IMG/VR virus record: IMGVR_UViG_3300045988_153046
Source of the DNA: a virus
Direction: 5' to 3' (one strand)
DNA: 58,315 nucleotides
Shown here: positions 21,880-58,315 of the stretch, piece by piece
Numbering within the stretch: the stretch's first letter is position 1
How the letters are laid out: each line of letters opens with the position of its first letter
Translations under genes and position numbers: made by a program
Notes under the pieces: generated by a model
Seen by the model: the letters and a program-made list of their open reading frames with translations, nothing else
What the model was told of the DNA's origin: nothing
Database searches by the model: none

Positions 21880-22308
21880 ATGGCTGATGGCGGTAGCAAT
21901 ATGAAAAATGATGCCTTTTATGCTGAGATGATCCAGATGATGAGAGCGCAAGGCAGTAAAGATAATCCGATTACTTTACAGCTAGGGGTTATGCAGAGTG
22001 CAAACAGCGTAAAGATAGATGATCTGGTGCTGGAGGCTGAGGATCTCTATATAGCGGATTATTTGGTAGCTGGATATACCAGAGAGCTTAAAATCCCCTA
22101 TGTATCTGGTGTAACAGTGGATACTACTCAAAATGATCCCTTTGGTACTGTGGATAGTGAGGGTAATTACCATGATCCAGATACCAGAGTTACCAGACAG
22201 AACAAGATTACCTACACTGATGGGCTTAAAAAGGGCGATCTGGTAGCGGTACAGAAATTGAATGATACAAACAAGTATGTTATTTTGGCAAGAGTAAAGG
22301 AGGCGTAA
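21880..22308 (+). CDS. XkdR-like baseplate protein
   Basis: Synteny and size. Confidence 0.5.
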   Translation: MADGGSNMKNDAFYAEMIQMMRAQGSKDNPITLQLGVMQSANSVKIDDLVLEAEDLYIADYLVAGYTRELKIPYVSGVTVDTTQNDPFGTVDSEGNYHDPDTRVTRQNKITYTDGLKKGDLVAVQKLNDTNKYVILARVKEA

Positions 22309-22310
22309 AA

Positions 22311-22727
22311 ATGAGTTTATTCCCCTTTGCGAGTACTGAGGAGGTTAGCTTAGTTACACCTGATGTAACCGCCTCATCTATTCGTGAATTTGAATATGAT
22401 TTTAAGAAAGGACGGCTCACTGGTAGGATTGTTACTGGGGTGGATGCTCTTTGTGTGTGGGCTTATTTAGCCTTAAAATCTAAGCGGTATAAATGGGTTA
22501 TTTATAGCTGGCAGTATGGAGAGGAATATACTAATCTCATTGGATACAGCTATGATGAGGATTACATGTATTCTGAGGTTAAACGATATATAGAGGAGTG
22601 CCTGTTAGTAAATGAGCATATTACAGGCATAGCGGATTTAGAGGTAGAACAGGTAAAGGATAAACTTCATATTTCCTTTACGCTGGTAACGGAAATTGGA
22701 AGTAAGGAGATGATGGTAGATGTATGA
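22311..22727 (+). CDS. XkdS-like baseplate protein
   Basis: Synteny and size. Confidence 0.5.
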   Translation: MSLFPFASTEEVSLVTPDVTASSIREFEYDFKKGRLTGRIVTGVDALCVWAYLALKSKRYKWVIYSWQYGEEYTNLIGYSYDEDYMYSEVKRYIEECLLVNEHITGIADLEVEQVKDKLHISFTLVTEIGSKEMMVDV

Positions 22728-23799
22728 GAAGCAAACTTTTGAGCGTATTTTACAGCGATCTTTAGAGCGTGTTGGTGTTGATGTGGATAAGCGTGAGGGC
22801 TCTCTGATTATGAATGCTATAGCTCCTGTATCCGCTGAACACGCTAATATTTATATTTTGCTGGATGGGATTATCTCTGATGGGTATGCAGATACCGCTA
22901 ACAGAGATTATCTTATCAGACGGTGTAGAGAGAGGGGCATTGAGCCTCATGCCGCTACTAACGCCGTATTAAAAGGCAAGTTTAACATGGAAATTCCTAT
23001 AGGCTCAAGGTTTAATCTGGAGGAGCTGAATTATGTAGCTATTGAGCTTATAGAGAGTGCTGAGGAGGAAACAGTTACTTATTACTACTATCAAATGAGG
23101 TGTGAAACCTCTGGTACTGAGGGTAATAAGTATTTTGGGGAGCTCTCCAGCATTGATTATATCCACAAGGATCTTGAGGGCTCTTTGGTAGAGCTTTTGA
23201 TACCCGCTGAGGATGAGGAGGATACTGAGATTTTGAGAAATCGGTATTTATCCTCTTTTGCCTCTAGCCCTTTTGGAGGGAATAAGCAGGATTATAAGGA
23301 CAAAACGAACTCTTTAGATGGAGTGGGCGGTACTGTAGTGATCCCTGTATGGAATGGAGGCGGTACAGTTAAGCTCATTATCATTGATAGTGAGTATCAT
23401 GTAGCCTCTGTAGAGTTGGTTAAGGCGGTGCAGGAGGCTATAGATCCAGATCCTCAAGGTACAGGTACAGGCATAGCTCCTATAGGGCATACAGTAACGG
23501 TAGTAAGTGCTGAGGCGTTTGCCGTAGATGTGAGTTGCAATATCACTCTTGTAGAGGGTTATCAACTGGTTACTGTGAAAACTAAGATTAAAGAGGCTCT
23601 TGAGGCGTATTTTCTGGATATGCGTAAAGCGTGGGAAAATGGCGGTTTGGTAGTGCGTATCTCTCAGATTGAAAACAGGATCTTAGGAGTAGATGGGGTG
23701 CTGGATGTAATCAACACTACTGCTAATGGCAGTACTGAAAATCTGGTATTGGAGGCAGATCAATTACCCATTATGGGAGAATTGGAGGTTAAAGCATAA
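22720..23799 (+). CDS. Baseplate J-like protein (XkdT-like)
   Basis: Size and synteny; overlapping start/stop with neighbours. Confidence 0.7.
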   Translation: MYEKQTFERILQRSLERVGVDVDKREGSLIMNAIAPVSAEHANIYILLDGIISDGYADTANRDYLIRRCRERGIEPHAATNAVLKGKFNMEIPIGSRFNLEELNYVAIELIESAEEETVTYYYYQMRCETSGTEGNKYFGELSSIDYIHKDLEGSLVELLIPAEDEEDTEILRNRYLSSFASSPFGGNKQDYKDKTNSLDGVGGTVVIPVWNGGGTVKLIIIDSEYHVASVELVKAVQEAIDPDPQGTGTGIAPIGHTVTVVSAEAFAVDVSCNITLVEGYQLVTVKTKIKEALEAYFLDMRKAWENGGLVVRISQIENRILGVDGVLDVINTTANGSTENLVLEADQLPIMGELEVKA

Positions 23800-24416
23800 T
23801 GGCAAAAGATGTACATTTACTTGAGTATTGGATGCCTTTGCTCAGAAACCTCAAAGAGTTTAAGGAGATTGCAAAAACTGAGGAGCCAGAGCTTAAATAT
23901 ATCTTAGAGGCTATAGATCGTACTCTGAATAATATGTTTATTGAGACAGCGGATGAGTACGGTATAGAGCGGTTTGAGAGCATGATGGGTATTATCCCTA
24001 ATGAGGGAGATGATCTGGAGAAAAGGCGGCTAACAGTGCTCACTATCTGGAATGACTATATACCTTTTACCAGATCTGAGCTGTATAAGAGGCTGGTTAG
24101 TATTTGCGGCTCTGAGAGTGGGTTTGAGATGATAGAAAAGTATCAAGAGTATATCTTAGAGCTTTACACTCATTTAGAGGTATCTGGAGCTTTTGATATG
24201 GTGCTCTCTACACTGGAGGAGATGTTGCCTTGTAACATGGTGGTAGTTTATGAAAATAAAGTACCTGTAAAATCTCCTTTTCAGTACTCTTTTGGAGGGG
24301 TAGGCTGTACTACAGAAAAGGTAAAGCTTAACTACACTGTATCCCTTTCTGAGCAAGCTCCGCTAATTGTTTGTGGTGGATTGGCGGCTAGGGTGATCGA
24401 ACACATTAAAATATAA
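23799..24416 (+). CDS. XkdU-like tail protein
   Basis: Synteny (between the baseplate J gene and the fibre gene). Confidence 0.5.
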   Translation: MAKDVHLLEYWMPLLRNLKEFKEIAKTEEPELKYILEAIDRTLNNMFIETADEYGIERFESMMGIIPNEGDDLEKRRLTVLTIWNDYIPFTRSELYKRLVSICGSESGFEMIEKYQEYILELYTHLEVSGAFDMVLSTLEEMLPCNMVVVYENKVPVKSPFQYSFGGVGCTTEKVKLNYTVSLSEQAPLIVCGGLAARVIEHIKI

Positions 24417-24430
24417 GGAGGATTTACATA

Positions 24431-26632
24431 ATGGCGGATTATAGAAATGCGGTTTTGTGCGTAAATGGTGAAAGGCTACTTGAGTTAGCGGTATCTGGAG
24501 CGGCTCAGATTAAGTTTACCTCTATCAAAACCTCCAGTACAAGATATGAGACTACTCAGCTTAGAGCTCTTACTGATATTGGGGATATTAGACAGAGTAG
24601 CGGGATCTCTGCTAGTACAGAGGATAGCCTTAACACAGTCTCTCTTTATACTTCTTTCTCTAATGCTAAGCTTGCAGAGGGGTATTATGTGAGAAACTTT
24701 GGTATCTATGCGGCTGATCCTGATGATGCTACTGGAGAAACTGAGCTTTTGTATGCGGTGGTTAATGCAGATGAGAGCGTTAATCCAGCTACTTTTATTC
24801 CCGCTTACAGTACTAAGGGTACTAGCGGTGTGGATTTTACCTGTGAGATTGTAGTGGCTAATTCGAGTGAGGTAACTATTAAGCTGGATGAAAATGCTGG
24901 AGTGCCTCTGAGTGTATTTAATACCTTTGCTGAACAGTTTAACGCTGGTATGCAAGCGGTAGATGAAAAGCTTGTAAAAGTGGATACTACTCTTAATGAG
25001 TTTGGTACTACTATTGCAGAGTTTGATACTGTTATTGAGAGTGTAAAAGTATCTCTCAGTGAGCATACTGCTGAGGATGCCCTTTACAGTGAGGCGGGGG
25101 TGCATAACCTTAGATACCATGAGGGAGTATTACAAGTCAAAACTCAAGAGGGTAACTGGGAGGATGCTGGCGGTAGTGGCGGCGGTATCGCTCCTAATGA
25201 TTGCTATGATATAAGTGTGAGGGCTGGTAATTCTAAGCTTACCCTTTTCTGGAGCGATCCTGAGGATACAGTGATTGAGGGGCGAAAGATTTGTACATGG
25301 GCTGGCACTAAACTTGTAGCTAAGGTAGGGGCTTATCCTGAGGATGTCAATGATGGTATTCTCCTTTTGGATAACAAGGTGAGAAATCAGTACTCTAAGA
25401 GCGGAGGTACTGGGTTTGAGTACAATAACCTCAACAATGGCACTACTTATTACTTTGCTCTATTCCCTTACAGCGATCAGAAAGCGGTTAATAAGAGCGA
25501 GAATAACAGGGCAAGCGGTACTCCTCAAGAGTATGTTGTGTATGGCATTGAGATTGATCTTACTAACAGCGATCCTACAAAATGGGCTACTTATACTGAT
25601 GATGCTGTAGGTATGACGGCGGGATCAAGTGCTTTTGATGGTAAGAGCATTTTTGATATTCAGAGCTATACCTTTAAAGATGGGGCAGAGGTAAAGGCTC
25701 TCAGTAAAACCGATAATACAAAGTATGCGGATGGCTCTAGTGCCAGTGCGGATCTCACTAGCGGTACTTATGATATTATGACTAAGTTTAAGAGAGGCGG
25801 GTATTACATTACTCACTCTGGAAACAAGCTTATTATCAAAGTTACTGATGATCCTAATAGAGATGGCTTTTGCTACAAGGCATTTCAGAGAGGCTCAGTT
25901 GATAAAGAGGAGTTTTATCTGGGGCGGTATAAGGGCTACATTGACGGTAACAGTAAACTTCGCTCTTATTCTGGGGTTACGCCTACAGGCAGTAAAACTA
26001 TTTCACAGTTTAGAACAGCGGCACACGCTACAGGGAAAGGCTATGAAAACAGCGGATTTTATCAGCTTGTTTGGCGGCAATGCTTGTACATGGTTAAGTA
26101 TCTTGCAAATAACTCTCAGCTTACTATTGGTAAGGGCTATACTGGAGGCTCCTCAGTTACCAGTACAGGCTCTACTAACGGTAAGGGAGATACCTATGGT
26201 ACTCAGACTAATACAGAGCACATGATCCTCTTTGGAATTGAGGATTTTTGGGGTAATATCTGGGAGTGGATTGATGGGCTTGCTACAGATAGTGCTAGAA
26301 ATATCCTTACAAATACCGATAACTTTCAAGATAACGGTATGGGCGGCGGCTATCTCAGTACCCCTAGTGGCTTATCATCTGATACGGGCGATTGGATGAA
26401 AGACGTGCAGGGCACTAATGATACTGGCTTTGTATTTAAGGCTGGTGGCGGATCGTCCACTACGAGTTTTTGTGATGACGGTCTTCTCTATGGTGGGTGT
26501 GTTGCGAGATTTGGCGGCTATTATAGTGATGGGGGTAATGCGGGTGTTTGTTATCTTTATGTGAGCTATGCGGCGGGTGGTTCTGGTGCTAGCATTGGCG
26601 GTCGCGTCATGTTCCTTGCTCCTAATTCTTGA
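24431..26632 (+). CDS. Tail fibre / receptor-binding protein; DGR target with C-terminal variable region
   Basis: Position after the baseplate genes. GNIWEWIDG (FGE/C-type-lectin-fold signature). The last ~50 codons are the VR copy of the TR. Confidence 0.9.
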   Translation: MADYRNAVLCVNGERLLELAVSGAAQIKFTSIKTSSTRYETTQLRALTDIGDIRQSSGISASTEDSLNTVSLYTSFSNAKLAEGYYVRNFGIYAADPDDATGETELLYAVVNADESVNPATFIPAYSTKGTSGVDFTCEIVVANSSEVTIKLDENAGVPLSVFNTFAEQFNAGMQAVDEKLVKVDTTLNEFGTTIAEFDTVIESVKVSLSEHTAEDALYSEAGVHNLRYHEGVLQVKTQEGNWEDAGGSGGGIAPNDCYDISVRAGNSKLTLFWSDPEDTVIEGRKICTWAGTKLVAKVGAYPEDVNDGILLLDNKVRNQYSKSGGTGFEYNNLNNGTTYYFALFPYSDQKAVNKSENNRASGTPQEYVVYGIEIDLTNSDPTKWATYTDDAVGMTAGSSAFDGKSIFDIQSYTFKDGAEVKALSKTDNTKYADGSSASADLTSGTYDIMTKFKRGGYYITHSGNKLIIKVTDDPNRDGFCYKAFQRGSVDKEEFYLGRYKGYIDGNSKLRSYSGVTPTGSKTISQFRTAAHATGKGYENSGFYQLVWRQCLYMVKYLANNSQLTIGKGYTGGSSVTSTGSTNGKGDTYGTQTNTEHMILFGIEDFWGNIWEWIDGLATDSARNILTNTDNFQDNGMGGGYLSTPSGLSSDTGDWMKDVQGTNDTGFVFKAGGGSSTTSFCDDGLLYGGCVARFGGYYSDGGNAGVCYLYVSYAAGGSGASIGGRVMFLAPNS
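26467..26616 (+). repeat. DGR variable region (VR)
   Basis: 150-nt ungapped match to 26807..26956; 24 mismatches, 23 of them opposite TR adenines. Confidence 0.92.
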
Positions 26633-26639
26633 GGAGCAA
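26616..26639 (+). other. Hairpin at the 3' boundary of VR, spanning the fibre stop codon
   Basis: TTGCTCCT (26616-23) pairs with AGGAGCAA (26632-39); 8-nt loop. Confidence 0.75.
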
Positions 26640-26806
26640 AGGGCGGCATGATGTGATAAGCGGCGGCAAGGGATAACCTGAGGCGGCAAGCACAGAAACA
26701 ATACTACAATTAAATACTGGGCAATGAGGATAGACCTGTGTACGCATTGGAAAACACTTAACACTAAGCTCGTGTGCATTACTCTATTGCTTATAAAAAA
26801 GCAAAA

Positions 26807-26956
26807 TTTTTGTGATAACAGTAATCTCTATGATGGGTGTGTTACGAAATTTGGCGGCAATTATAGTAATGGGGATAATGCAGGTGTTTGTTATCTTAAT
26901 GTGAACAATACGGCGAGTAATTCTAATGCTAACATTGGCGGTCACGTTATATTCCT
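26807..26956 (+). repeat. DGR template repeat (TR)
   Basis: Adenine-rich (AAY codon-rich in the VR frame), invariant donor copy, 200 nt upstream of the RT. Confidence 0.92.
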
Positions 26957-27157
26957 ATACTTTTTTGTATCGTAAAATGCTCATTGCCCTACCTCTCCTA
27001 CATGAGTAGGCACTAGATCCCTCATGGCGTAAGCTGTGGGGGATTTTTGGTAGGTAAAACTTAGTAGCAGGGCTGAGAGGCTCTGTTACGATCCATGAAA
27101 TGTGTTAGTATCGCTGGAAACAGCGTTGAAAACTCAAATTAAAGGAACAGGATAATT

Positions 27158-28225
27158 ATGAAACGATTTGGATATATTTATGAGAAAATCTGTGATTTAG
27201 ATAATCTCAGGGATGCTCATAAGCACGCAAGAAAAGACAAGCTTTATTATAGGGAGGTGAAAATGATTGATAAAAATCCTGATTTTTACCTAAAGCAGAT
27301 ACAAGAGATGCTGATAAATGAAACTTATGAGGTGAGCCCTTATACAGTTTCTATTATCAATGACAAGGGAAAAGATAGAGAGCTGAGGAAACTCCCCTAC
27401 TATCCTGATAGGATCATTCAGTGGGCAATCATGCTCCAGATTGAAAAGATTTTTATGGATGTGTTTATCAGTAGCACTTGTGCCTCTTTAGCGGGGAGGG
27501 GTATTCATACCGCCTCTAAGAAGATCAGGAGATACCTTAAGGAAGATCCAGAGGGTACTAGGTATTGCTATAAGATTGATGTAAAGCATTTTTATCCTAG
27601 TATCAATCATGCAATGCTTAAAAAGCTTCTTAGGAAAAAGTTTAAGGATACTAAGCTTTTAAGGTTGCTGGATAAAATCATTGATAGCTCAGGAGGAGAG
27701 GTAGGTATCCCTATCGGATCTTACCTCTCTCAGTATCTAGCAAACTTTTACCTTGCTTACTTCGATCACTGGATTAAGGAGGAGCTGGGGGTAAAGTACT
27801 ATGTGAGGTACATGGATGATATTGTAATACTTCATAACTCAAAAGAGTATCTCCATGCGCTACACTTCAAAATCAGGGAGTATTTAGGCAGTAACCTCCA
27901 GCTATCTATAAAGGATAATTGGCAAGTATTCCCTACAGCGGTGAGAGGAATAGATTTTGTGGGATATAGGCACTTTTACGGTTATCATCTATTGAGAAAA
28001 ACTACCTATAAGCGGTTTAGAAAGAAAATGCTTAAGATTAGGCGTAAGCAGGAAAAGAAAAAGCCTGTAAACCGTAAAGATTGGAGTAGTTTTAATAGCT
28101 ACAAGGGGCGGTTGCTATGGTGTAACAGCTATAACCTCATAAGACGGTATTTAGAGCCTATTAGGGTGTGGGTGGGAATTTATTACAGTGAGAATATCAA
28201 AAAAGTTAAGGAGGTAGCGGCATGA
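27158..28225 (+). CDS. DGR reverse transcriptase
   Basis: YVRYMDDIVIL (YxDD) catalytic box, PIGSYLSQYLAN (DGR-type IGxxxSQ motif), 355 aa, adjacent TR. Confidence 0.92.
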   Translation: MKRFGYIYEKICDLDNLRDAHKHARKDKLYYREVKMIDKNPDFYLKQIQEMLINETYEVSPYTVSIINDKGKDRELRKLPYYPDRIIQWAIMLQIEKIFMDVFISSTCASLAGRGIHTASKKIRRYLKEDPEGTRYCYKIDVKHFYPSINHAMLKKLLRKKFKDTKLLRLLDKIIDSSGGEVGIPIGSYLSQYLANFYLAYFDHWIKEELGVKYYVRYMDDIVILHNSKEYLHALHFKIREYLGSNLQLSIKDNWQVFPTAVRGIDFVGYRHFYGYHLLRKTTYKRFRKKMLKIRRKQEKKKPVNRKDWSSFNSYKGRLLWCNSYNLIRRYLEPIRVWVGIYYSENIKKVKEVAA

Positions 28226-28494
28226 AAGTATTTGAAAGAGTTACAGGCAGTGAGGCTCAGGCAAAACCTCTTATAGTAGGTAAAACTACTGTATATGTGC
28301 ATGAGGATATTACCCCTGTTACTGAGCCTGATCCCATTACTGGGGAAGTGCCTAAGGGTATGTACACTTACAAAGAGATCCAGTATGAAAAGGATGAGTA
28401 CATTAAGCTCATGGCTGATAAAAATGCGGTTCTTGAAAAACAGGCTACAGATATTCAGATGGCTCTAACTGAGGTATATGAGATGATGCTGTAA
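28222..28494 (+). CDS. XkdW-position hypothetical protein
   Basis: ATGA overlap with the RT stop; synteny with PBSX xkdW. Confidence 0.4.
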   Translation: MKVFERVTGSEAQAKPLIVGKTTVYVHEDITPVTEPDPITGEVPKGMYTYKEIQYEKDEYIKLMADKNAVLEKQATDIQMALTEVYEMML

Positions 28495-28513
28495 AGTAGA
28501 AAGGAGCGGTACT

Positions 28514-28621
28514 ATGGCTAAGATTTATTACGAGCTTATCAAAAAGGGCTTAAAAACTCTGGAGGATGTACCAGAGCGGCTTAGGGTGGAGGTTGAAAAG
28601 CTCTTAGAGAGTGGAGAGTGA
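28514..28621 (+). CDS. Small conserved phage protein (35 aa), paralogue of 28678..28809
   Basis: MAKIYYELIKKGLKTLEDVPERLRVEV aligns with MAVIYATLIVKGKKAITDVPAVIKAQV; RBS AAGGAG. Confidence 0.55.
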   Translation: MAKIYYELIKKGLKTLEDVPERLRVEVEKLLESGE

Positions 28622-28677
28622 TTGATATGCTTATCAATCTTATCCTAAAAATATTTTTCAGAAAGGAGTTAGGTAAA

Positions 28678-28809
28678 ATGGCTGTAATCTATGCTACTCT
28701 TATTGTTAAGGGTAAAAAGGCAATCACTGATGTACCAGCGGTGATTAAGGCTCAGGTTAAGCAGATTTTGATTGATCTGGAAGTGCCTGAGTTGGCAAAC
28801 GAGGAGTAA
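28678..28809 (+). CDS. Small conserved phage protein (43 aa), paralogue of 28514..28621
   Basis: ATG 28678 after AGGAG; the track's longer start is unlikely. Confidence 0.55.
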   Translation: MAVIYATLIVKGKKAITDVPAVIKAQVKQILIDLEVPELANEE

Positions 28810-28864
28810 AAGGGGGCTAAAAGCCCTCTTTTACTAATTTCTGAGAAAGGAGGATAGCCAGTGT

Positions 28865-29203
28865 ATGATTGATCCAGAAATCGCAGAAAGGCTAGTAAAG
28901 GTAGAGGAAAGAGCAAAAAGCAATACTCATCAGATAGAGGAGCTAAAACCTGTAGTAAATGAGATACATACAATCTCTAAAACAATGGTAGAGCTCATGG
29001 GTGAGTGTAGGTGCACTAATGAGAATGTTGATGAGATTAAGCAGGATGTATCTAAGCTAAATGACAAAGTGGAGAACATTGAGAAAGAGCCCGCTAAGGA
29101 GTGGAGCTCAATGAAAAGGACGGTATTTAACACTCTGGTAGGTGCTATGGCGGGTGCTCTGGCTACTGGATTACTGGCTCTCCTAGCTCAGTACCTTCAC
29201 TAA
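28865..29203 (+). CDS. XhlA-like membrane protein (lysis module)
   Basis: N-terminal coiled coil plus a single C-terminal TM helix; position upstream of the holin and endolysin. Confidence 0.6.
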   Translation: MIDPEIAERLVKVEERAKSNTHQIEELKPVVNEIHTISKTMVELMGECRCTNENVDEIKQDVSKLNDKVENIEKEPAKEWSSMKRTVFNTLVGAMAGALATGLLALLAQYLH

Positions 29204-29221
29204 TATTAAGGAGGTAGTGGT

Positions 29222-29659
29222 ATGGTGAGGAAAAGAAAAAGGAGGCGATCCAGTTTATCTACCAGAAAATCTAAGCGAAAGCTGGAGTTTTCTAAGGTTA
29301 TTGTGGTTCTTACAGCGGTACTTTTTATTTTGGCTTTGCTGGATATAAGGTGTGGAGTAAGAGAGGGGCTTGATGTAAGCGGCTATGCTACTCAGCTCAT
29401 AGTAACTACTGGGGGTATTTTTGGAGCCTCTATAATTTTTTATCTCAATAAATCCAAAATTGAAAACCTCTCTAAAGGAAAAATCAGGTTTTTACTACTC
29501 AGGCTGAGGCTGGAGCTAAAGCTTAAAGATAAGATACCTGAGGAAAGTTACCAGATTATCTTAGATGAGTTAAGTAAGCTGGATGCCATGCTTGATAATA
29601 AGCTGGATGGTACTTTAGAGGAGGCTATTCAACATGAGATAGATGTACAAAACTATTAA
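29222..29659 (+). CDS. Membrane protein with a basic N-terminus (2 TM)
   Basis: RKRKRRR N-terminus, two hydrophobic helices. Confidence 0.45.
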   Translation: MVRKRKRRRSSLSTRKSKRKLEFSKVIVVLTAVLFILALLDIRCGVREGLDVSGYATQLIVTTGGIFGASIIFYLNKSKIENLSKGKIRFLLLRLRLELKLKDKIPEESYQIILDELSKLDAMLDNKLDGTLEEAIQHEIDVQNY

Positions 29660-29672
29660 GGAGGGTAATGTT

Positions 29673-29984
29673 ATGACTTTGGCACTGTTTGTAACTCTTG
29701 TTTCTCTCTTTGCGGTTGCAGTATCCCTCATTACTGAGGCTGTAAAGAAGTTTTTGCAAGGGGCGAGGGTAAAGTACTCCGCTAATATCGTGGTACTTAT
29801 TTTATCTATAGTTGTGGCTGTGGGAGGTACAGCTCTGGTATATCTGTTTATGGGTATTCCATATACCACCCCTAATATCGTATGTATGGCACTTATGGCT
29901 GTGGCAGTCTGGGTAGGATCTATGGTGGGCTATGACAAAGTGATCCAGATGCTAGAACAGCTAAAATCATTAAAACTTAAGTAA
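29673..29984 (+). CDS. Holin (putative)
   Basis: About 100 aa, 3 hydrophobic helices, upstream of the endolysin; ATG after AAGGAGGG. Confidence 0.6.
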   Translation: MTLALFVTLVSLFAVAVSLITEAVKKFLQGARVKYSANIVVLILSIVVAVGGTALVYLFMGIPYTTPNIVCMALMAVAVWVGSMVGYDKVIQMLEQLKSLKLK

Positions 29985-30037
29985 TGTGTGTGGGAGAGCT
30001 GTAAAGGGCTCTCCCCTTTTCAAAGGAGGTTATCAAA

Positions 30038-30163
30038 ATGACAGAAAAGCAGGATAAGAGAGAGCTTGCTGAGGAAGTAGAAAAGCTGGATCTTGAAAAA
30101 GGTGAGGAGATCACTGATGAAACTCTCCTTAACCTGAGTGATAATAAGGGGAGGGATGAGTAA
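30038..30163 (+). CDS. Small acidic hypothetical protein (41 aa)
   Basis: ATG after AAGGAGG; TAATG overlap with the endolysin start. Confidence 0.4.
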
Positions 30164-31332
30164 TGGCTTACACAAATAGCCCTTTAGTATCTTACACAAA
30201 GATTAGCCCTAACCGCACAAAAAATAGAAATCATGCCATAGATACGATTACTATTCATTGTGTAGTAGGGCAGTGCTCAGTACAAACGCTGGGCAATATC
30301 TTTGCTCCTACTTCTAGGGGAGCCTCCTCAAATTATGGGGTAGGCTATGATGGCAAGATTGGTATGTATGTAGAAGAAAAGGATAGATCATGGTGCTCCT
30401 CCAGTAGTGTAAATGATAATAGGGCGGTTACTATTGAGGTTGCCAGTGATACCTCTGAGCCTTATGCGGTAAATCAAAAAGCTTATGCCTCCTTGCTTAA
30501 TCTGGTAACGGATATTTGCAAAAGAAACGGAATTAAAAAGCTGATATGGAGCAAAAACAAGAATGAGCGGGTAAACCACTTGAACGGTTGTAATATGACT
30601 GTACACAGAGATTACGCTAACAAGAGTTGTCCAGGCACTTATCTCTATAATAAACATGGAGAGATTGCCGCTGAGGTTAATAAGAGGCTTGGCGCAAATG
30701 CTACTACTCCACAAGCTCCCTCTGCTAATCTTAAGTTTAAGGCTGGGGATATTGTGCAGTTTGCAGGAGGCAAGCATTATAAGAGTGTGGATGCCTCCAG
30801 CGGTAGCACTGTAAAGGCTAGCAAGGCTAAGATCACTCAGGTAGCCAGCGGTAAACATCCCTATCATTGTAGGGCTGTAAATGAGGCTGGAGCTTTTGTG
30901 AGCGGCGTTTATGGCTGGGTAGATGAAAATACCCTTACAGCTATTTCAAACGTCTCTAAGCCAGCTACAGGCTCTACAGGGCTTAAGATAGGGGATCAAG
31001 TAATGTTTACAGGTTGCCTCCACTACACAAGCTCCTATAAAACCGCTACAGCTCATGCTTGTAAGGCTGGGCTTGCTAAAATCACTAAGATCTCTGCTAA
31101 AAATCCTCATCCTTATCATTTGCAAGCGGTAGCGGGTAAGGGATCTACAGTGCATGGCTGGGTAGGTGCTAAGGATATTCAGGCTACAGCAAATACTTAC
31201 ACTGTAAAGAGTGGAGATACCCTTAGTGGCATTGCTAAGAAATATGGTACTACTGTAGCTAAGCTGGTAGAGCTAAATGGTATCAAAAATGCTAATCTGA
31301 TCTATAAAGGTCAGTTAATCAAGCTGCCTTAA
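30163..31332 (+). CDS. Endolysin: N-acetylmuramoyl-L-alanine amidase + 2 SH3-like repeats + LysM
   Basis: Amidase_2-like DTITIHC...NDNRAVTIE...[11 protein letters not shown]; duplicated GD.V.F.G..HY...AKIT...HPYH...GWV; C-terminal Lys[18 protein letters not shown]. Confidence 0.9.
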
Positions 31333-31407
31333 TAGGCTCTCCTATTTTCTTGTGAGGTACAGGCTCTCTATTGTGAGGGCGTGTACCCCATTTTTTTTGT
31401 TTTTCAG

Positions 31408-31436
31408 TTGCTATTTTTATATAAGAGATATATAAT
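31408..31436 (+). promoter_or_regulatory. Sigma-A-type promoter upstream of the integrase
   Basis: TTGCTA-N17-TATAAT. Confidence 0.6.
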
Positions 31437-31579
31437 AGATACAAACGGCTAGAAAGCCCTTAGAGAGCTTTTAAGGGTTGAGGGTAGAGAGTTATACCCC
31501 TGAGCGATTAAAGCGGCTCAGAGGGGCAAGAGCGGGGCTCAGGCGGGGCAAAAAAAAATAAACTAAAGGAGTGTATAGG

Positions 31580-33291
31580 ATGGCTTACAGGAAAGAGCAG
31601 GATACCATAGGATTAAGAGCGGCGTTTTATGCCAGAGTATCTACAGCGGAGGAGGAACAGCTTAACGCTATAGAGCTCCAGATTGAGGAGAACAGAAACG
31701 CTATAGAGCGGCATAAGTGGAAAAAGGTAGATGAGTATATTGATCGGAGCAAGTCTGGTACTATGGTAAAGGGCAGAGATGAGTACCAAAGGCTTTTTGA
31801 TGATCTTTACTCTGATAAGTTTGATGTGGTGGTAATCAAAGATCAGGAGCGGCTCATGAGAAATACTCTTGATTGGTATTTATTCATAAATCGCTTAGTA
31901 TCTACAGGTAAGATCCTTTATATGTACATGGAGGATAGGTTTTACTCTCCTGATGATGCCTTAATTACAGGAATAAAGGCGATTATAGCAGAGGAGTTTA
32001 GTAGAAATCTCTCTAAAAAGCTCCGCAATTATCACGCTGGGAGAGTGGCTAAGGCAAGAGAGGGAAAAGAGATAGATTTACAGGGTAGCGGTAATGTTTT
32101 TGGCTGGGATAAAAAGAGGGTAGGTATATTCTTAATCCAGAGCAAGCAAAAATAAGGCGGCTCATGTGTGAAGGGATCATGGCTAGAAAAGGCTCTACTC
32201 AGATTGCTAAGGAGCTAAATGATGCGGGATACAGAAACACAGTAGGTAAGAAGTGGAAACCTATGGATATTCCTAAGTTTGTGTATGACTGCAAAAATGT
32301 TGGCACTATGATAATCAACAAAGAGAGGCATGATTTTGAGAGCAAGAAAACTATCAAGCTCCCTGAGAGTGAGTGGGTGTATGTTAAAAATGCCTTGCCG
32401 CCTATAGTCACTGAGGAGGAGTGGGCTTTAATTTGTAAAATCCGTGAGGAGAGAGTGATAGCTACAGGCTGTAACAAGCGGGGTAAGAAAACTACAGGAT
32501 TTTCTTTCAGTGGTAAGATCTATTGTGGACTGTGTGATGCGCCATACTGGAGAAAACAGGGAGTATCTAAAGAGGAATACTGGGTATGCAGTACTAAGCA
32601 AACTAAAGGCAGAAAAACAAGGGCTAGAGATGCTGTAGGCGGGAAAGCTGGGGAGTTTAATGCTGAGGGCTGTGATAATGAAAATATCTCTTATGGTGCG
32701 CTCATGGCTATTATGGAGCTTGTTTCAGAGCGGCTAAAGGCAGATACAGGGGTTATTAAAGAATTTATGATAGAAAGGCTTAACGGCTACAAAAAACGCA
32801 TTACAGAGGCTAACAGAGGGGCTACAGAGGCAGATTTACAAAGAGAGCTTGATAGAAAAGATAGGCTCTTAGATGCTTACCTAGATCATATCCTCACAAA
32901 AGAGGAGTATCAAAGAAAAGCCCTAGCTTTAGATGAGAAAATCATGGAGCTCAAAAGAGAAGTAACTGCTAATAGGGGTAATCTGGAGGATTTGAATGAG
33001 ATAGATAGGGTACTGGCAAATATTGATGCAGAGGTAGCAAAATACTTAGATGATAATAGCCAGCTCAAAGTAGAGTACCTTTTAGAGCATTTGGAGAAAG
33101 TGGTTATCTATCCTGATAAGGCGGTTGTTATAATACCGATATTGTGTGAGGGGTTTGTGGTAGATAAAGCTCAGTATGTATCTAGGGAGAAATCTACTGA
33201 GATACAAACTGAAAGCAATGTAATTTATCTGGCAGATGTGAGGTACTGGAACAGAGATATAGAGCTGTATGTACAGTTTGTAGCGGCATAA
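31580..33291 (+). pseudogene. Large serine recombinase (integrase) interrupted by a 1-nt frameshift in an A5 run
   Basis: Resolvase domain (FYARVSTAEEEQ) ends at TAA 32153-55. The +2 frame, open from 32113, continues KEGRYILNPEQAKIRRL... A6 instead of A5 at 32111-15 would fuse them. Confidence 0.85.
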
Positions 33292-46253: not shown

Positions 46254-46880
46254 GTGGAAATAGCCAGCAAGAGGGAAAGAGGAGATAAGCCTGATGGTGA
46301 GTTTGATTATGGCTGTGCTTGCTATAGTGGGGCTTTGGAGGCGTTTGAGGTGCTCTGTAATCAGGGGCATAGTGGTATGAGTATTGGCTTTACAAAACAG
46401 ATCCTTAACAGGTTGATAGATGGAAAACCTCTTACTCCCATTGAAGATACTGAGGATGTATGGAATTTAACACATAGAGAGGGAAAGATTAAACATTATC
46501 AGTGTAGCCGCATGAGTAGCTTGTTTAAGGATGTATCAGAGGATGGCAAGATTACTTATTCAGATGTTAATAGAGTATGCGGGGTTGATTGTAATTCTGG
46601 GGCTACATATCACTCAGGGTTAGTAAGTAGGGTGGTTAATGAAATGTACCCTATCCAGATGCCCTATATTCCAAAATCTCCTTATAGAGTGTTTTGTGAG
46701 GATTTTCTAACTGATAAGAAAAATGGAGATTTTGATACGGTTGGTATTTTTTATTTAATTGATCCTGATGGGGAGAGAGTGGAAATAAACCGATTTTTTA
46801 AGGAGAGTAGCTTAGGGTTTTCGGAGATCTCTAAAGATGAGTATATGGAAAGAAAGAGTAATAGAATAGCGTTAAAGTAG
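46254..46880 (+). CDS. Hypothetical protein
   Basis: Long ORF on the coding strand; GTG start uncertain. Confidence 0.5.
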   Translation: MEIASKRERGDKPDGEFDYGCACYSGALEAFEVLCNQGHSGMSIGFTKQILNRLIDGKPLTPIEDTEDVWNLTHREGKIKHYQCSRMSSLFKDVSEDGKITYSDVNRVCGVDCNSGATYHSGLVSRVVNEMYPIQMPYIPKSPYRVFCEDFLTDKKNGDFDTVGIFYLIDPDGERVEINRFFKESSLGFSEISKDEYMERKSNRIALK

Positions 46881-46937: not shown

Positions 46938-47492
46938 TTGAAAGTAGACATTTTTAGAACGGATAAAAAATACGGCGTGATTTATGCAGATCCAGCATGG
47001 ACTTACAGAGATAAAGCCCTTGCGGGTAATCGTGGAGCGGGTTGCAAATATCCTGTTATGAGTTTAGAGGATATTTGTAGATTGCCTGTAAAAGATCTGG
47101 CGGCGGATGATTGTGTATTGTTTTTGTGGGTTACTATGCCTAAGCTAAATGAGGCTTTTGATGTAATGAAAGCGTGGGGGTTTGAGTACAAAACTTGCGC
47201 TTTTACATGGGTTAAGCAAAACAGAAAATCAGATCGCCTTTTTTGGGGTATGGGGAGGTGGACTAGAGCTAATGCGGAGTTGTGCCTGTTAGGTACTAAG
47301 GGAAAACCTAAAAGAGAGGATGCTGGGGTACATAGTGTTATTATTTCTCATGTTGAGGAGCATAGCAAAAAGCCAGCAGAAACAAGAGATCGCATTGTAA
47401 GGCTATTAGGTGCGGGGGAGGGCATACAAAAGATAGAGCTTTTTGCAAGGCAGACAGTAGAGGGCTGGGATTGCTGGGGGAATGAGGTATAG
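46938..47492 (+). CDS. MT-A70-family N6-adenine DNA methyltransferase
   Basis: VIYADPAWTY (DPPW motif), EHSKKP; TTG start after AAGGGAGG. Confidence 0.88.
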   Translation: MKVDIFRTDKKYGVIYADPAWTYRDKALAGNRGAGCKYPVMSLEDICRLPVKDLAADDCVLFLWVTMPKLNEAFDVMKAWGFEYKTCAFTWVKQNRKSDRLFWGMGRWTRANAELCLLGTKGKPKREDAGVHSVIISHVEEHSKKPAETRDRIVRLLGAGEGIQKIELFARQTVEGWDCWGNEV

Positions 47493-47495
47493 AGT

Positions 47496-47777
47496 ATGAG
47501 AGTGTACATAGCTGGAGCAATGACAGGAATATTTTATTATAAAAAGCCCTTTATGGAGGCAGAAAAGGATCTTAAGGGGCTGGGGCATATCGTAGTTAAT
47601 CCCGCATATTTATCAGAGGGCTTAGCTGATTACTTTGAAATCAATAAAGCTATGATAGATCAGTGTGATGCTATCTATGTGCTAGAGGGCTGGGAGAAGT
47701 CTATAGGCACTAAAAAGGAAATTGAATATTGTAAGAGTAAAGGCTGGAAAGATGCGGTGCAGATTATTTACCAGTGA
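47496..47777 (+). CDS. DUF4406 / nucleoside 2-deoxyribosyltransferase-like protein
   Basis: MRVYIAGAMTG...VVNPA...QCDAIYVLEGWEKSIGTKKE. Confidence 0.7.
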   Translation: MRVYIAGAMTGIFYYKKPFMEAEKDLKGLGHIVVNPAYLSEGLADYFEINKAMIDQCDAIYVLEGWEKSIGTKKEIEYCKSKGWKDAVQIIYQ

Positions 47778-58175: not shown

Positions 58176-58211
58176 AGAGAGGGTAACTCCTCTCTTGTTT
58201 TTTTTTTTTTT
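58176..58211 (+). terminator. Strong rho-independent terminator
   Basis: AGAGAGG / CCTCTCT stem followed by T14. Confidence 0.85.
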
Positions 58212-58315
58212 GCGCTCTAAAGATACCCCTCAAAAGTGATTAGGTTAAAGCATGAATACAAAGGCAAGGAGGGTTATTTGATGGGCGTTGCTGAGGATGT
58301 ATTAGAGTATCTGAA
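58197..58315. repeat. Terminal redundancy (copy of 1..119)
   Basis: Exact identity with the window start. Confidence 0.95.
58216..58246 (+). promoter_or_regulatory. Bipartite motif copy 1 repeated within the terminal redundancy
   Basis: Same sequence as 20..50. Confidence 0.6.

Follow-up and report, generated by a model that had tools for sequence, protein, structure and literature searches.

Whether a phage can diversify its receptor-binding protein with a template repeat and a reverse transcriptase (RT) alone is the question raised by the virus record IMGVR_UViG_3300045988_153046 of IMG/VR. This stretch of DNA, which was analysed over its whole length of 58,315 nucleotides and is called the window in the following, carries at positions 24431-28225 a tail-fibre gene, a near copy of the 3' end of this gene and an RT gene, all in one direction. 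An earlier note had read this arrangement as a complete diversity-generating retroelement (DGR), in which the near copy is the template region (TR) and the 3' end of the fibre gene the variable region (VR). One of the closest known systems is the DGR of the Bordetella podovirus BPP-1 (mtd-avd-TR-brt), which encodes the protein Avd in addition to its RT. By every defining DGR feature tested, the cassette described here is a DGR, and it belongs to a known architectural class without Avd. We are highly confident of the fuller description as well, that is, of a DGR that is active, has a target-TR-RT arrangement without Avd (Architecture A1) and lies among the tail genes of a temperate human-gut myovirus whose 58.2-kb genome is complete. 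Each component named in the earlier note was present and passed an independent test; the element can be called "complete" only by the standard of the Avd-less Architecture A, since avd is absent.

TR-to-VR transfer at adenines

A repeat search revealed a single long direct repeat in the window (26467-26616 and 26807-26956; 150 nt, 84% identity, offset 340). A base-by-base count gave exactly what had been stated before: the two copies align without gaps and with 24 mismatches, 23 of which are located at TR adenines (18 A>G, 4 A>T and 1 A>C in the direction from TR to VR), whereas one is T/C (26948/26608). With 41 A in the 150 nt of the TR, the probability of finding at least 23 of 24 mismatches on A is 5.7e-15 (hypergeometric). 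The repeat extends by 2 nt at its 5' end (26465-26466 and 26805-26806), which adds one further A>G mismatch. The number of differing codons, given as 20 in the earlier note, had to be corrected to 21 within the 150 nt, and the placement of the VR in the last ~50 codons of the 733-codon fibre open reading frame (ORF) was confirmed. Only one copy of a VR-like sequence is present in the genome. Gene finders call an 83-aa ORF over the TR (26724-26975; e.g. in L239-L243), whose sole PHROG match is a weak one to the C-terminus of a fibre tail family. This ORF is the fibre reading frame that was inherited with the copied segment, and it is probably not a gene.

Copies of the locus from 11 samples contained 11 distinct VRs and 11 identical TRs. 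Almost all variable VR sites (32 of 33) are templated by TR adenines, the exception being 26536, and at the adenine-templated sites several different bases were found at each. Two sites, 26504 and 26542, are G in all 11 VRs. In five genomes that were compared over 8.2 kb, 30 variable sites fell into the 152-nt VR and none into the TR or the VR-TR spacer; the density amounted to 197 per kb in the VR versus ~2.6 per kb upstream, and the RT gene had 1 variable site in 1068 nt. Positions other than A agreed with the TR in 539 of 545 cells. TR adenines were read out in the first five VRs as A (48.5%), G (35%), T (12%) and C (4.5%). The RT of the Bordetella phage, bRT, is known to misincorporate at adenines in vitro with a frequency of roughly 50%, and misincorporation of C, which leads to A>G, is dominant in most contexts. 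Since the readout spectrum agrees with both, the 18 A>G among 23 changes are unremarkable. The same picture was obtained at the protein level. Clustering at 90% identity gave 170 members for the fibre (all those listed have 733 aa) versus 61 for the RT, one variant of which occurs in 402 indexed blocks of the assembly collection. Among 15 members of the fibre cluster, residues 1-681 were essentially identical with three singleton changes, and 22 of the 25 variable columns were located within residues 682-722. All of these 22 correspond to TR codons with an A at position 1 or 2, and VR codons that have no TR A at these positions did not vary among the 15 members.

The direction of the transfer became evident from a sister phage, L244, with an RT that is 92% identical and a fibre with another N-terminus. 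Its TR has four changes at positions other than A and its VR has the same changes; therefore, information flows from TR to VR. In sum, we observed TR-to-VR transfer together with adenine-specific variation. A variable fibre end could also arise without reverse transcription, by ordinary recombination or gene conversion of fibre alleles or by G-to-A hypermutation of a duplicate, and phage fibre genes are indeed mosaic, as in L244, where the C-terminal domain is shared but the N-terminal architecture differs. However, variation is confined to the TR-adenine sites with several bases per site, the other positions equal the TR, the TR is invariant and there is one VR-like copy in the genome. Hypermutation of a duplicate would, moreover, not yield A>T and A>C in the expressed copy, and we regard this explanation as extremely improbable. 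The element could also be a relic, with a real TR/VR pair and a real RT but mismatches that are the fossil of past activity. In its favour are the negative Pfam scan for Avd and the single VR in the window's own sample (the window, L239 and L245 are the same). Against it stand the eleven different VRs that eleven near-identical phages combine with one TR, the contrast between the VR and its background, an RT that is intact and nearly invariant, and the TR and VR of L244, which stayed in step at non-A positions. A dead element is, thus, very unlikely, and we continue with an active DGR.

The reverse transcriptase and its target

The gene downstream of the TR codes for an RT of 355 aa in which the two motifs reported earlier were found again, YMDD at residues 218-221 and IPIGSYLSQ at 184-192. 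The stretch I186-G-S-Y-L-S-Q192 corresponds to [I/V/L]GxxxSQ, which takes the place of QGxxxSP and is described as the signature of DGR RTs (PMC7826257). The best match among solved structures was bRT (8ub7, E 1.9e-35, residues 3-328), versus 1e-16 for a group II intron RT; R74 aligns with Arg74 of bRT, and the equivalent of bRT I181 is also present. By its sequence, the RT is of the DGR type. An RT from another system (group II intron, retron or Abi/DRT defence), next to which a duplicated fibre 3' end lies by coincidence, would be the alternative, and NCBIfam indeed gave matches to group II intron RT (110 bits, cut-off 300), Drt3a (83 bits, cut-off 200) and retron RT, as did PADLOC to DRT models. 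However, all group II, Drt and retron matches stayed below the curated cut-offs, the best PADLOC match was the generic RT model, bRT leads the solved structures by ~19 orders of magnitude and the IGxxxSQ motif is DGR-specific. Rfam yielded no family, and hence no group II intron or retron RNA, in the whole window (gathering mode) or in 26600-27200 (E-value mode). Further, in dozens of relatives with adenine-specific VR/TR pairs, the TR lies immediately 5' of the RT gene. An origin of this DGR-type RT from another system is, therefore, hardly conceivable.

The full fibre protein had no match in Pfam or NCBIfam; with PHROGs, residues 1-156 matched the tail fibre phrog_7037 and residues 350-731 the tail protein phrog_5302. 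The motif GNIWEW, taken before as a hallmark of the C-type-lectin fold, is present. An AlphaFold2 model of the last 370 residues, calculated with 38 homologues, reached a pLDDT of 96.4 and a pTM of 0.95. Foldseek against the PDB ranked TaqVP (5vf4, E 1e-11) first, followed by five Mtd variants (1yu0-1yu4), TvpA (2y3c) and then FGE-type folds, and a weak sequence match of the fibre to 5vf4 was found across the GNxWEW region. From the model, the C-terminal domain is confidently predicted to have the C-type-lectin fold of DGR variable proteins, as the earlier note had proposed. In L244, nearly the same TR, VR and RT are combined with a fibre of 554 aa that is preceded by three extra genes. The different N-terminal architecture shows modular exchange upstream of the C-type-lectin domain. 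The features of the locus are compiled in Table 1.

Table 1 Features of the DGR locus, ordered by position in the window. IMH, initiation of mutagenic homing; IMH*, the counterpart of the IMH in the TR. Functional designations of the IMH, the IMH* and the RNA elements are putative.
Feature	Position	Strand	Remarks
DGR target: tail fibre/receptor-binding protein, 733 aa	24431-26632	+	N-terminal baseplate-attachment, middle and C-terminal C-type-lectin-fold domains
C-type-lectin (FGE-like) fold domain carrying the VR, C-terminal 370 aa	25520-26629	+	predicted by AlphaFold2 and Foldseek
Variable region (VR)	26465-26616	+	codons 679-729; ungapped match to TR
Tract diversified in practice	26477-26594	+	first and last VR positions varying among 11 VRs
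IMH-like VR 3' end, GGCGGTCGCGTCATGTTCCT	26597-26616	+	invariant in 11 VRs
Inverted repeat just 3' of the IMH, across the stop codon	26616-26639	+	TTGCTCCT (26616-26623), loop AATTCTTG, AGGAGCAA (26632-26639)
Three GGCGGCA(A/T)G repeats with an exact 20-nt period	26642-26690	+	starts at 26642, 26662 and 26682; VR-TR spacer
P0, 5' strand, GGGCAATGAG	26719-26728	+	pairs with 26980-26989 (CTCATTGCCC); long-range helix bracketing the TR
Template region (TR)	26805-26956	+	same in 11/11 copies from different samples
IMH*-like TR 3' end, GGCGGTCACGTTATATTCCT	26937-26956	+	counterpart of the IMH-like VR end
Structured TR-RT spacer RNA	26957-27157	+	RNA fold z = -3.4
P1	26989-26993 / 27049-27053	+	55-nt insertion with hairpins 26997-27010 and 27015-27046 (GUAA loop)
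A-run	27055-27059	+	3' of P1
GAGA-loop hairpin	27064-27089	+	GNRA-capped, in place of the relatives' linker
P2/P3 module, GAAA loop	27101-27136	+	covariance-model match
DGR reverse transcriptase, 355 aa	27158-28225	+	Pfam RVT_1; phrog_1423 "Reverse transcriptase", E 2e-118
orf90, late phage gene	28222-28494	+	ATGA-coupled to the RT; phrog_18126, function unknown; small, acidic

Boundary, spacer RNA and accessory factors

The diversified tract ends at 26594, and the GC-rich sequence of the IMH-like end (GGCGGTCGCG...) did not vary in the 11 VRs. The VR and TR versions of this end differ at 26604 (G/A), 26608 (C/T) and 26611 (G/A) in 11 of 11 copies; these three mismatches are fixed IMH/IMH* differences and not diversified sites. 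In L244 the VR version is conserved and the TR version drifts. By analogy with BPP-1, we read the VR end as the putative IMH and the TR end as the putative IMH*. The inverted repeat that follows has a perfect stem of 8 bp, which can be extended to an imperfect one of ~20 bp, and the DNA fold of 26590-26720 amounted to -20.9 kcal/mol (z = -2.4); an inverted repeat downstream of the IMH is, according to the literature, not universal in DGRs. Between the fibre stop codon and the TR lie 172 nt that do not code for protein and contain no plausible gene. They include the GGCGGCA(A/T)G repeats, which are conserved in L244, invariant in the near-identical phages and absent from more distant relatives. 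The core of these repeats is also found within TR and VR (GGCGGCAAT at TR 26853-26861) and resembles the start of the IMH, GGCGGTC.

The spacer between TR and RT was analysed with ~90 RT relatives (45-66% RT identity) from IMG/VR and GTDB genomes. Their spacers have a common motif, TTGCCCTGCC-TCTT-GGCAAAACATAAAAA ... CTGTATTAGTAG-hairpin-TTGAAGGTTCGG ... AACATCAA, for which RNAalifold gave a 4-bp hairpin, P1, and a 6-bp helix, P2, with compensatory changes in 7 of the 10 pairs. Pairing was observed in 97.7% of the cells versus 81% after shuffling and in at most 45% when the partners were slid by 1-3 columns, and the observed score was reached by 0 of 500 shuffles. Immediately 5' of P1, the relatives have TTGCCC, the complement of which, GGGCAA, is conserved 5' of the TR, and the 3-5 positions past this anchor covary by lineage (GGGCAACCGT/ACGGTTGCCC, GGGTAATGG/CCATTACCC and TGGCAACTAA/TTAGTTGCCA). 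A permutation test for this helix, P0, found 74 of 147 unanchored positions paired; 54.6 +/- 5.0 were expected and the maximum in 2000 permutations was 70. P0 was also predicted in the window by the unconstrained minimum-free-energy fold of 26710-27160, and folding paired 26944-26951 with 26966-26973. As shown by covariation, P0, the stem-loop and the A-run have the layout of the "cPRT Stop" of BPP-1; a corresponding function seems plausible by analogy.

These elements can be assembled into a model. An RNA of roughly 26719-27136 would be transcribed, in which the 10-bp P0 helix closes the TR into a loop that is followed by the short stem-loop and the A-run. The RT would begin to copy the TR somewhere within 26935-26943, with the fold-back of 26944-26951 on 26966-26973 as the probable primer in cis, and would misincorporate opposite TR adenines. 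The resulting complementary DNA (cDNA) would then be integrated in place of the VR sequence 5' of the IMH, by which up to ~22 residues on the ligand-binding face of the C-type-lectin domain could be recoded, and the likely outcome would be a phage population with differing receptor specificities. If, by analogy to BPP-1, the cis-primed cDNA started at ~26943, this would explain why the three IMH* differences do not appear in the VR.

Several points weigh against the reading as an active DGR with this mechanism. No Avd (PF05635-type) and no other accessory protein (HRDC, MSL, CH1) was found with Pfam among selected ORFs from the whole 58-kb genome, which were concatenated as pseudo-proteins, nor with NCBIfam among the cassette genes; therefore, the mechanism of BPP-1 cannot simply be copied. 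Both the priming site and the cDNA are steps that we infer. A promoter scan for the DGR RNA gave nothing above the shuffle background. The covariance model of the relatives matched the spacer of the window weakly and in part (27101-27136, + strand, E 0.32, the sole match in the genome), because this spacer, which has diverged from those of the clade, carries large insertions; the same model matched L244 over its full length with the 55-nt insert. The inverted repeat 3' of the IMH is only partly kept in L244. Finally, the evidence for activity comes from assemblies of different samples, and the window, L239 and L245, which apparently stem from one sample, share one VR.

Could another protein take over the role of Avd? 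The candidate within the locus is orf90, the start codon of which overlaps the RT stop codon (28222-28225), confirming the ATGA coupling stated before. Most related loci have an orf90 homologue after the RT, and the small, acidic product had no match in Pfam, NCBIfam, PADLOC or PDB profiles. However, homologues of orf90 are located directly 3' of the fibre gene in loci that lack TR and RT, and more distant, mostly Bacteroidota-type relatives of the RT clade have no orf90. A function of orf90 as the missing accessory factor is, therefore, very improbable; since RT-less relatives have kept the gene, it belongs to the tail/lysis module of the phage and not to the DGR. Such an arrangement, the same C-type-lectin-type fibre followed by the orf90 homologue, was seen in five loci (L161, L173, L190, L174 and L185), and two further loci (L169 and L178) have kept a 40-aa remnant of the RT. 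The RT-less loci and the RT remnants indicate that the TR-RT cassette (~1.6 kb, 26633-28221) is a discrete unit that was repeatedly gained or lost here. A different candidate was noticed in twelve relatives with ~49% RT identity (L030, L032, L034, L040, L043, L050, L099, L106, L109, L139, L140 and L143). These have a conserved ORF of 111-122 aa (MENN..DDGSLAFL..RFLVKIKF..FFTNSQEIKYILGKIKE..) between VR and TR, the position of avd in BPP-1; it belongs to phrog_19665 (function unknown), has no Pfam match and may be an undescribed accessory protein. This ORF is absent from the window.

The relatives (L001-L251) also revealed a bias that depends on the neighbours of an adenine. In 80 unique VR/TR pairs, 203 of the 209 TR adenines with the context C-A-G appeared as G in the VR, third-codon synonymous C-A-G sites were G in 60 of 61, and adenines in C-A-C were G in 83-96%. 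In the window, position 26480 (TR 26820, C-A-G) is G in 10 of 11 VRs, and 26542 (TR 26882), where the change GCA>GCG is synonymous, is G in all 11 and in L244. Context effects on bRT mutagenesis are known, but those published are far weaker than this bias. The enzyme itself, RNA editing, repair or selection could each be responsible. A slippage (dislocation) model was ruled out, as an A before C also becomes G and not C, and protein-level selection is unlikely to be the sole cause given the synonymous sites. Of the 57 tabulated synonymous C-A-G/C-A-C sites, ~45 are one homologous N-[A/S]-G position, with about ten other sites behaving alike; because most of them are this position, selection at the nucleotide level could act there.

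A tentative proposal, which we consider possible but rather doubtful, combines both observations: in this Avd-less RT clade, the RNA alone (P0, P1 stem-loop, A-run and P2/P3) may replace the Avd and RNA of BPP-1, and the enzyme or a later step may turn C-A-G and C-A-C adenines near-deterministically into G. If so, these adenines of the TR would be silent and not diversifying, and, provided that the cause is mechanistic and not selective, the context rule of DGR mutagenesis would be much stronger than the one reported for bRT.

The phage and its relation to known systems

An exact terminal repeat of 119 nt (1-119 = 58197-58315) was found in the window. The window, therefore, represents a complete genome of 58,196 bp that is either circular or terminally redundant; the same genes are present on contigs of 58.2-59.0 kb from other datasets. 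Within the first 24 kb, Pfam identified at the start a terminase, an SPP1-type portal, a MuF-like protein, an SU10-type capsid protein and connectors. The tail genes follow in the order sheath, tube, XkdN-like chaperone, tape measure, LysM protein, YqbQ/XkdQ, DUF2577, sheath initiator, Baseplate_J, Mu gp48-like protein and fibre. Downstream of the RT are orf90, a CD1375-family peptide, an XhlA-like protein ("hemolysin" phrog_937, 28865-29203), membrane proteins including holin(s) and an amidase with a LysM domain. A PBSX-like contractile tail/lysis module, into which the earlier note had placed the cassette, is supported by the order of these Pfam and PHROG matches; the gene described as being in the xkdW position, orf90, has no detectable similarity to XkdW. 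No tRNA was found by a tRNA scan. A megablast of 22000-31500 against INPHARED phages gave no match, and IMG/VR contained no near-identical phage (the closest RT was 66% identical and the TR-core pattern was unmatched); a search of JGI metagenome contigs for the VR-TR spacer pattern found one extra copy only.

Some features outside the DGR were noticed. The serine integrase is split by a run of five A (32111-32115) into ORFs of 194 aa (31571-32155) and 375 aa (32164-33291), and five integrated copies (L247-L251) have six A and an intact integrase ORF of 541-583 aa. The sequence GAT AAA AAG at this run resembles a -1 slippery site; the run may act as a phase-variable tract or cause a programmed frameshift, or the integrase may be dead in a variant that replicates freely. 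The junction between prophage and host corresponds to 33192/33193 (at ~16000 in L247-L251), within the 3' end of the integrase gene. On the host side, the sequence at five different host loci codes for G-E-N-G-A-G-K-S-T, the Walker A motif of ABC-transporter ATPases. Integration, thus, apparently targets a coding motif that is nearly universal and swaps the C-terminus of the phage's own integrase. The host is probably a member of the Clostridia, judged from SCIFF and radical-SAM genes in the flank of one integrated copy. Downstream of a family A DNA polymerase gene, three genes code for a Tad3-like Thoeris inhibitor (46254-46880; PF25185, E 8.5e-28), an MT-A70 family methyltransferase (46938-47492) and a DUF4406 protein (47496-47777), which probably form an anti-defence block.

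Tail-fibre DGRs in gut Firmicutes phages are known already, and the cassette is an ordinary example of a well-known system that does not alter the general knowledge of DGRs. Two points go slightly beyond the published work consulted, namely an RNA architecture that covariation supports for a clade without Avd and the observation on C-A-G adenines. The locus is a natural, clean case of a DGR operating without Avd, with all evidence for activity coming from public assemblies. TR, the ~200-nt spacer and the 355-aa RT make up a compact candidate to study or engineer Avd-independent targeted mutagenesis, for which the covarying helices supply concrete, testable limits of the functional RNA. For the ecology of gut phages, one more widespread temperate phage with a hypervariable receptor-binding tip is added.

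Like BPP-1, the DGR has a homologous RT, a tail-fibre receptor-binding protein of C-type-lectin fold whose gene has the VR in its last ~50 codons, adenine-specific TR-to-VR transfer, and a GC-rich putative IMH that differs from IMH* at fixed positions and has a candidate inverted repeat behind it; further, sequences on either side of the TR pair to a helix, after which a stem-loop and adenosines follow. Unlike BPP-1, it has no avd, its diversified codons are mostly AAT and not AAC, and its spacer RNA of ~200 nt has extra GNRA-capped hairpins and no recognisable sequence similarity to the Sp of BPP-1; the phage itself is a PBSX-like, contractile-tailed one from the human gut with a probable Clostridia host. 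The duplex, stem-loop and adenosines of BPP-1 were solved and named cPRT Stop by Handa et al., who surveyed them in Avd-bearing DGRs only (bioRxiv 10.1101/2023.10.23.563531). Avd-less elements of Architecture A, without accessory genes, made up 29% of the 372 DGRs of Wu et al. 2018, who found no avd elsewhere in these genomes and proposed Avd-independent homing (PMC5758913). With this share of DGRs lacking them, accessory genes are not a defining feature. The core of target, TR and RT without an accessory gene is alike in their Architecture A1/"Lineage 3", a likeness of gene organisation; their Lineage 3a differs by its occurrence in Bacteroides and relatives and by CH1 (160-169 aa), which is absent here. 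TaqVP of the Thermus aquaticus DGR (5vf4), the best structural match of the C-terminal 370 aa of the fibre with a TM score of ~0.5, shares GNxWEW, but the sequence identity is 16% and TaqVP is a cellular protein and not a phage fibre. Active tail-fibre DGRs are described from temperate phages of gut Firmicutes ("GuFi"), including contractile-tailed ones (bioRxiv 10.64898/2026.01.26.701711). These and the DGR of Hankyphage (PMC6199706) resemble the element described here in that they belong to temperate human-gut phages, some with contractile tails, and target tail fibres, and in that non-synonymous variation clusters in the final ~100 bp of the target gene.

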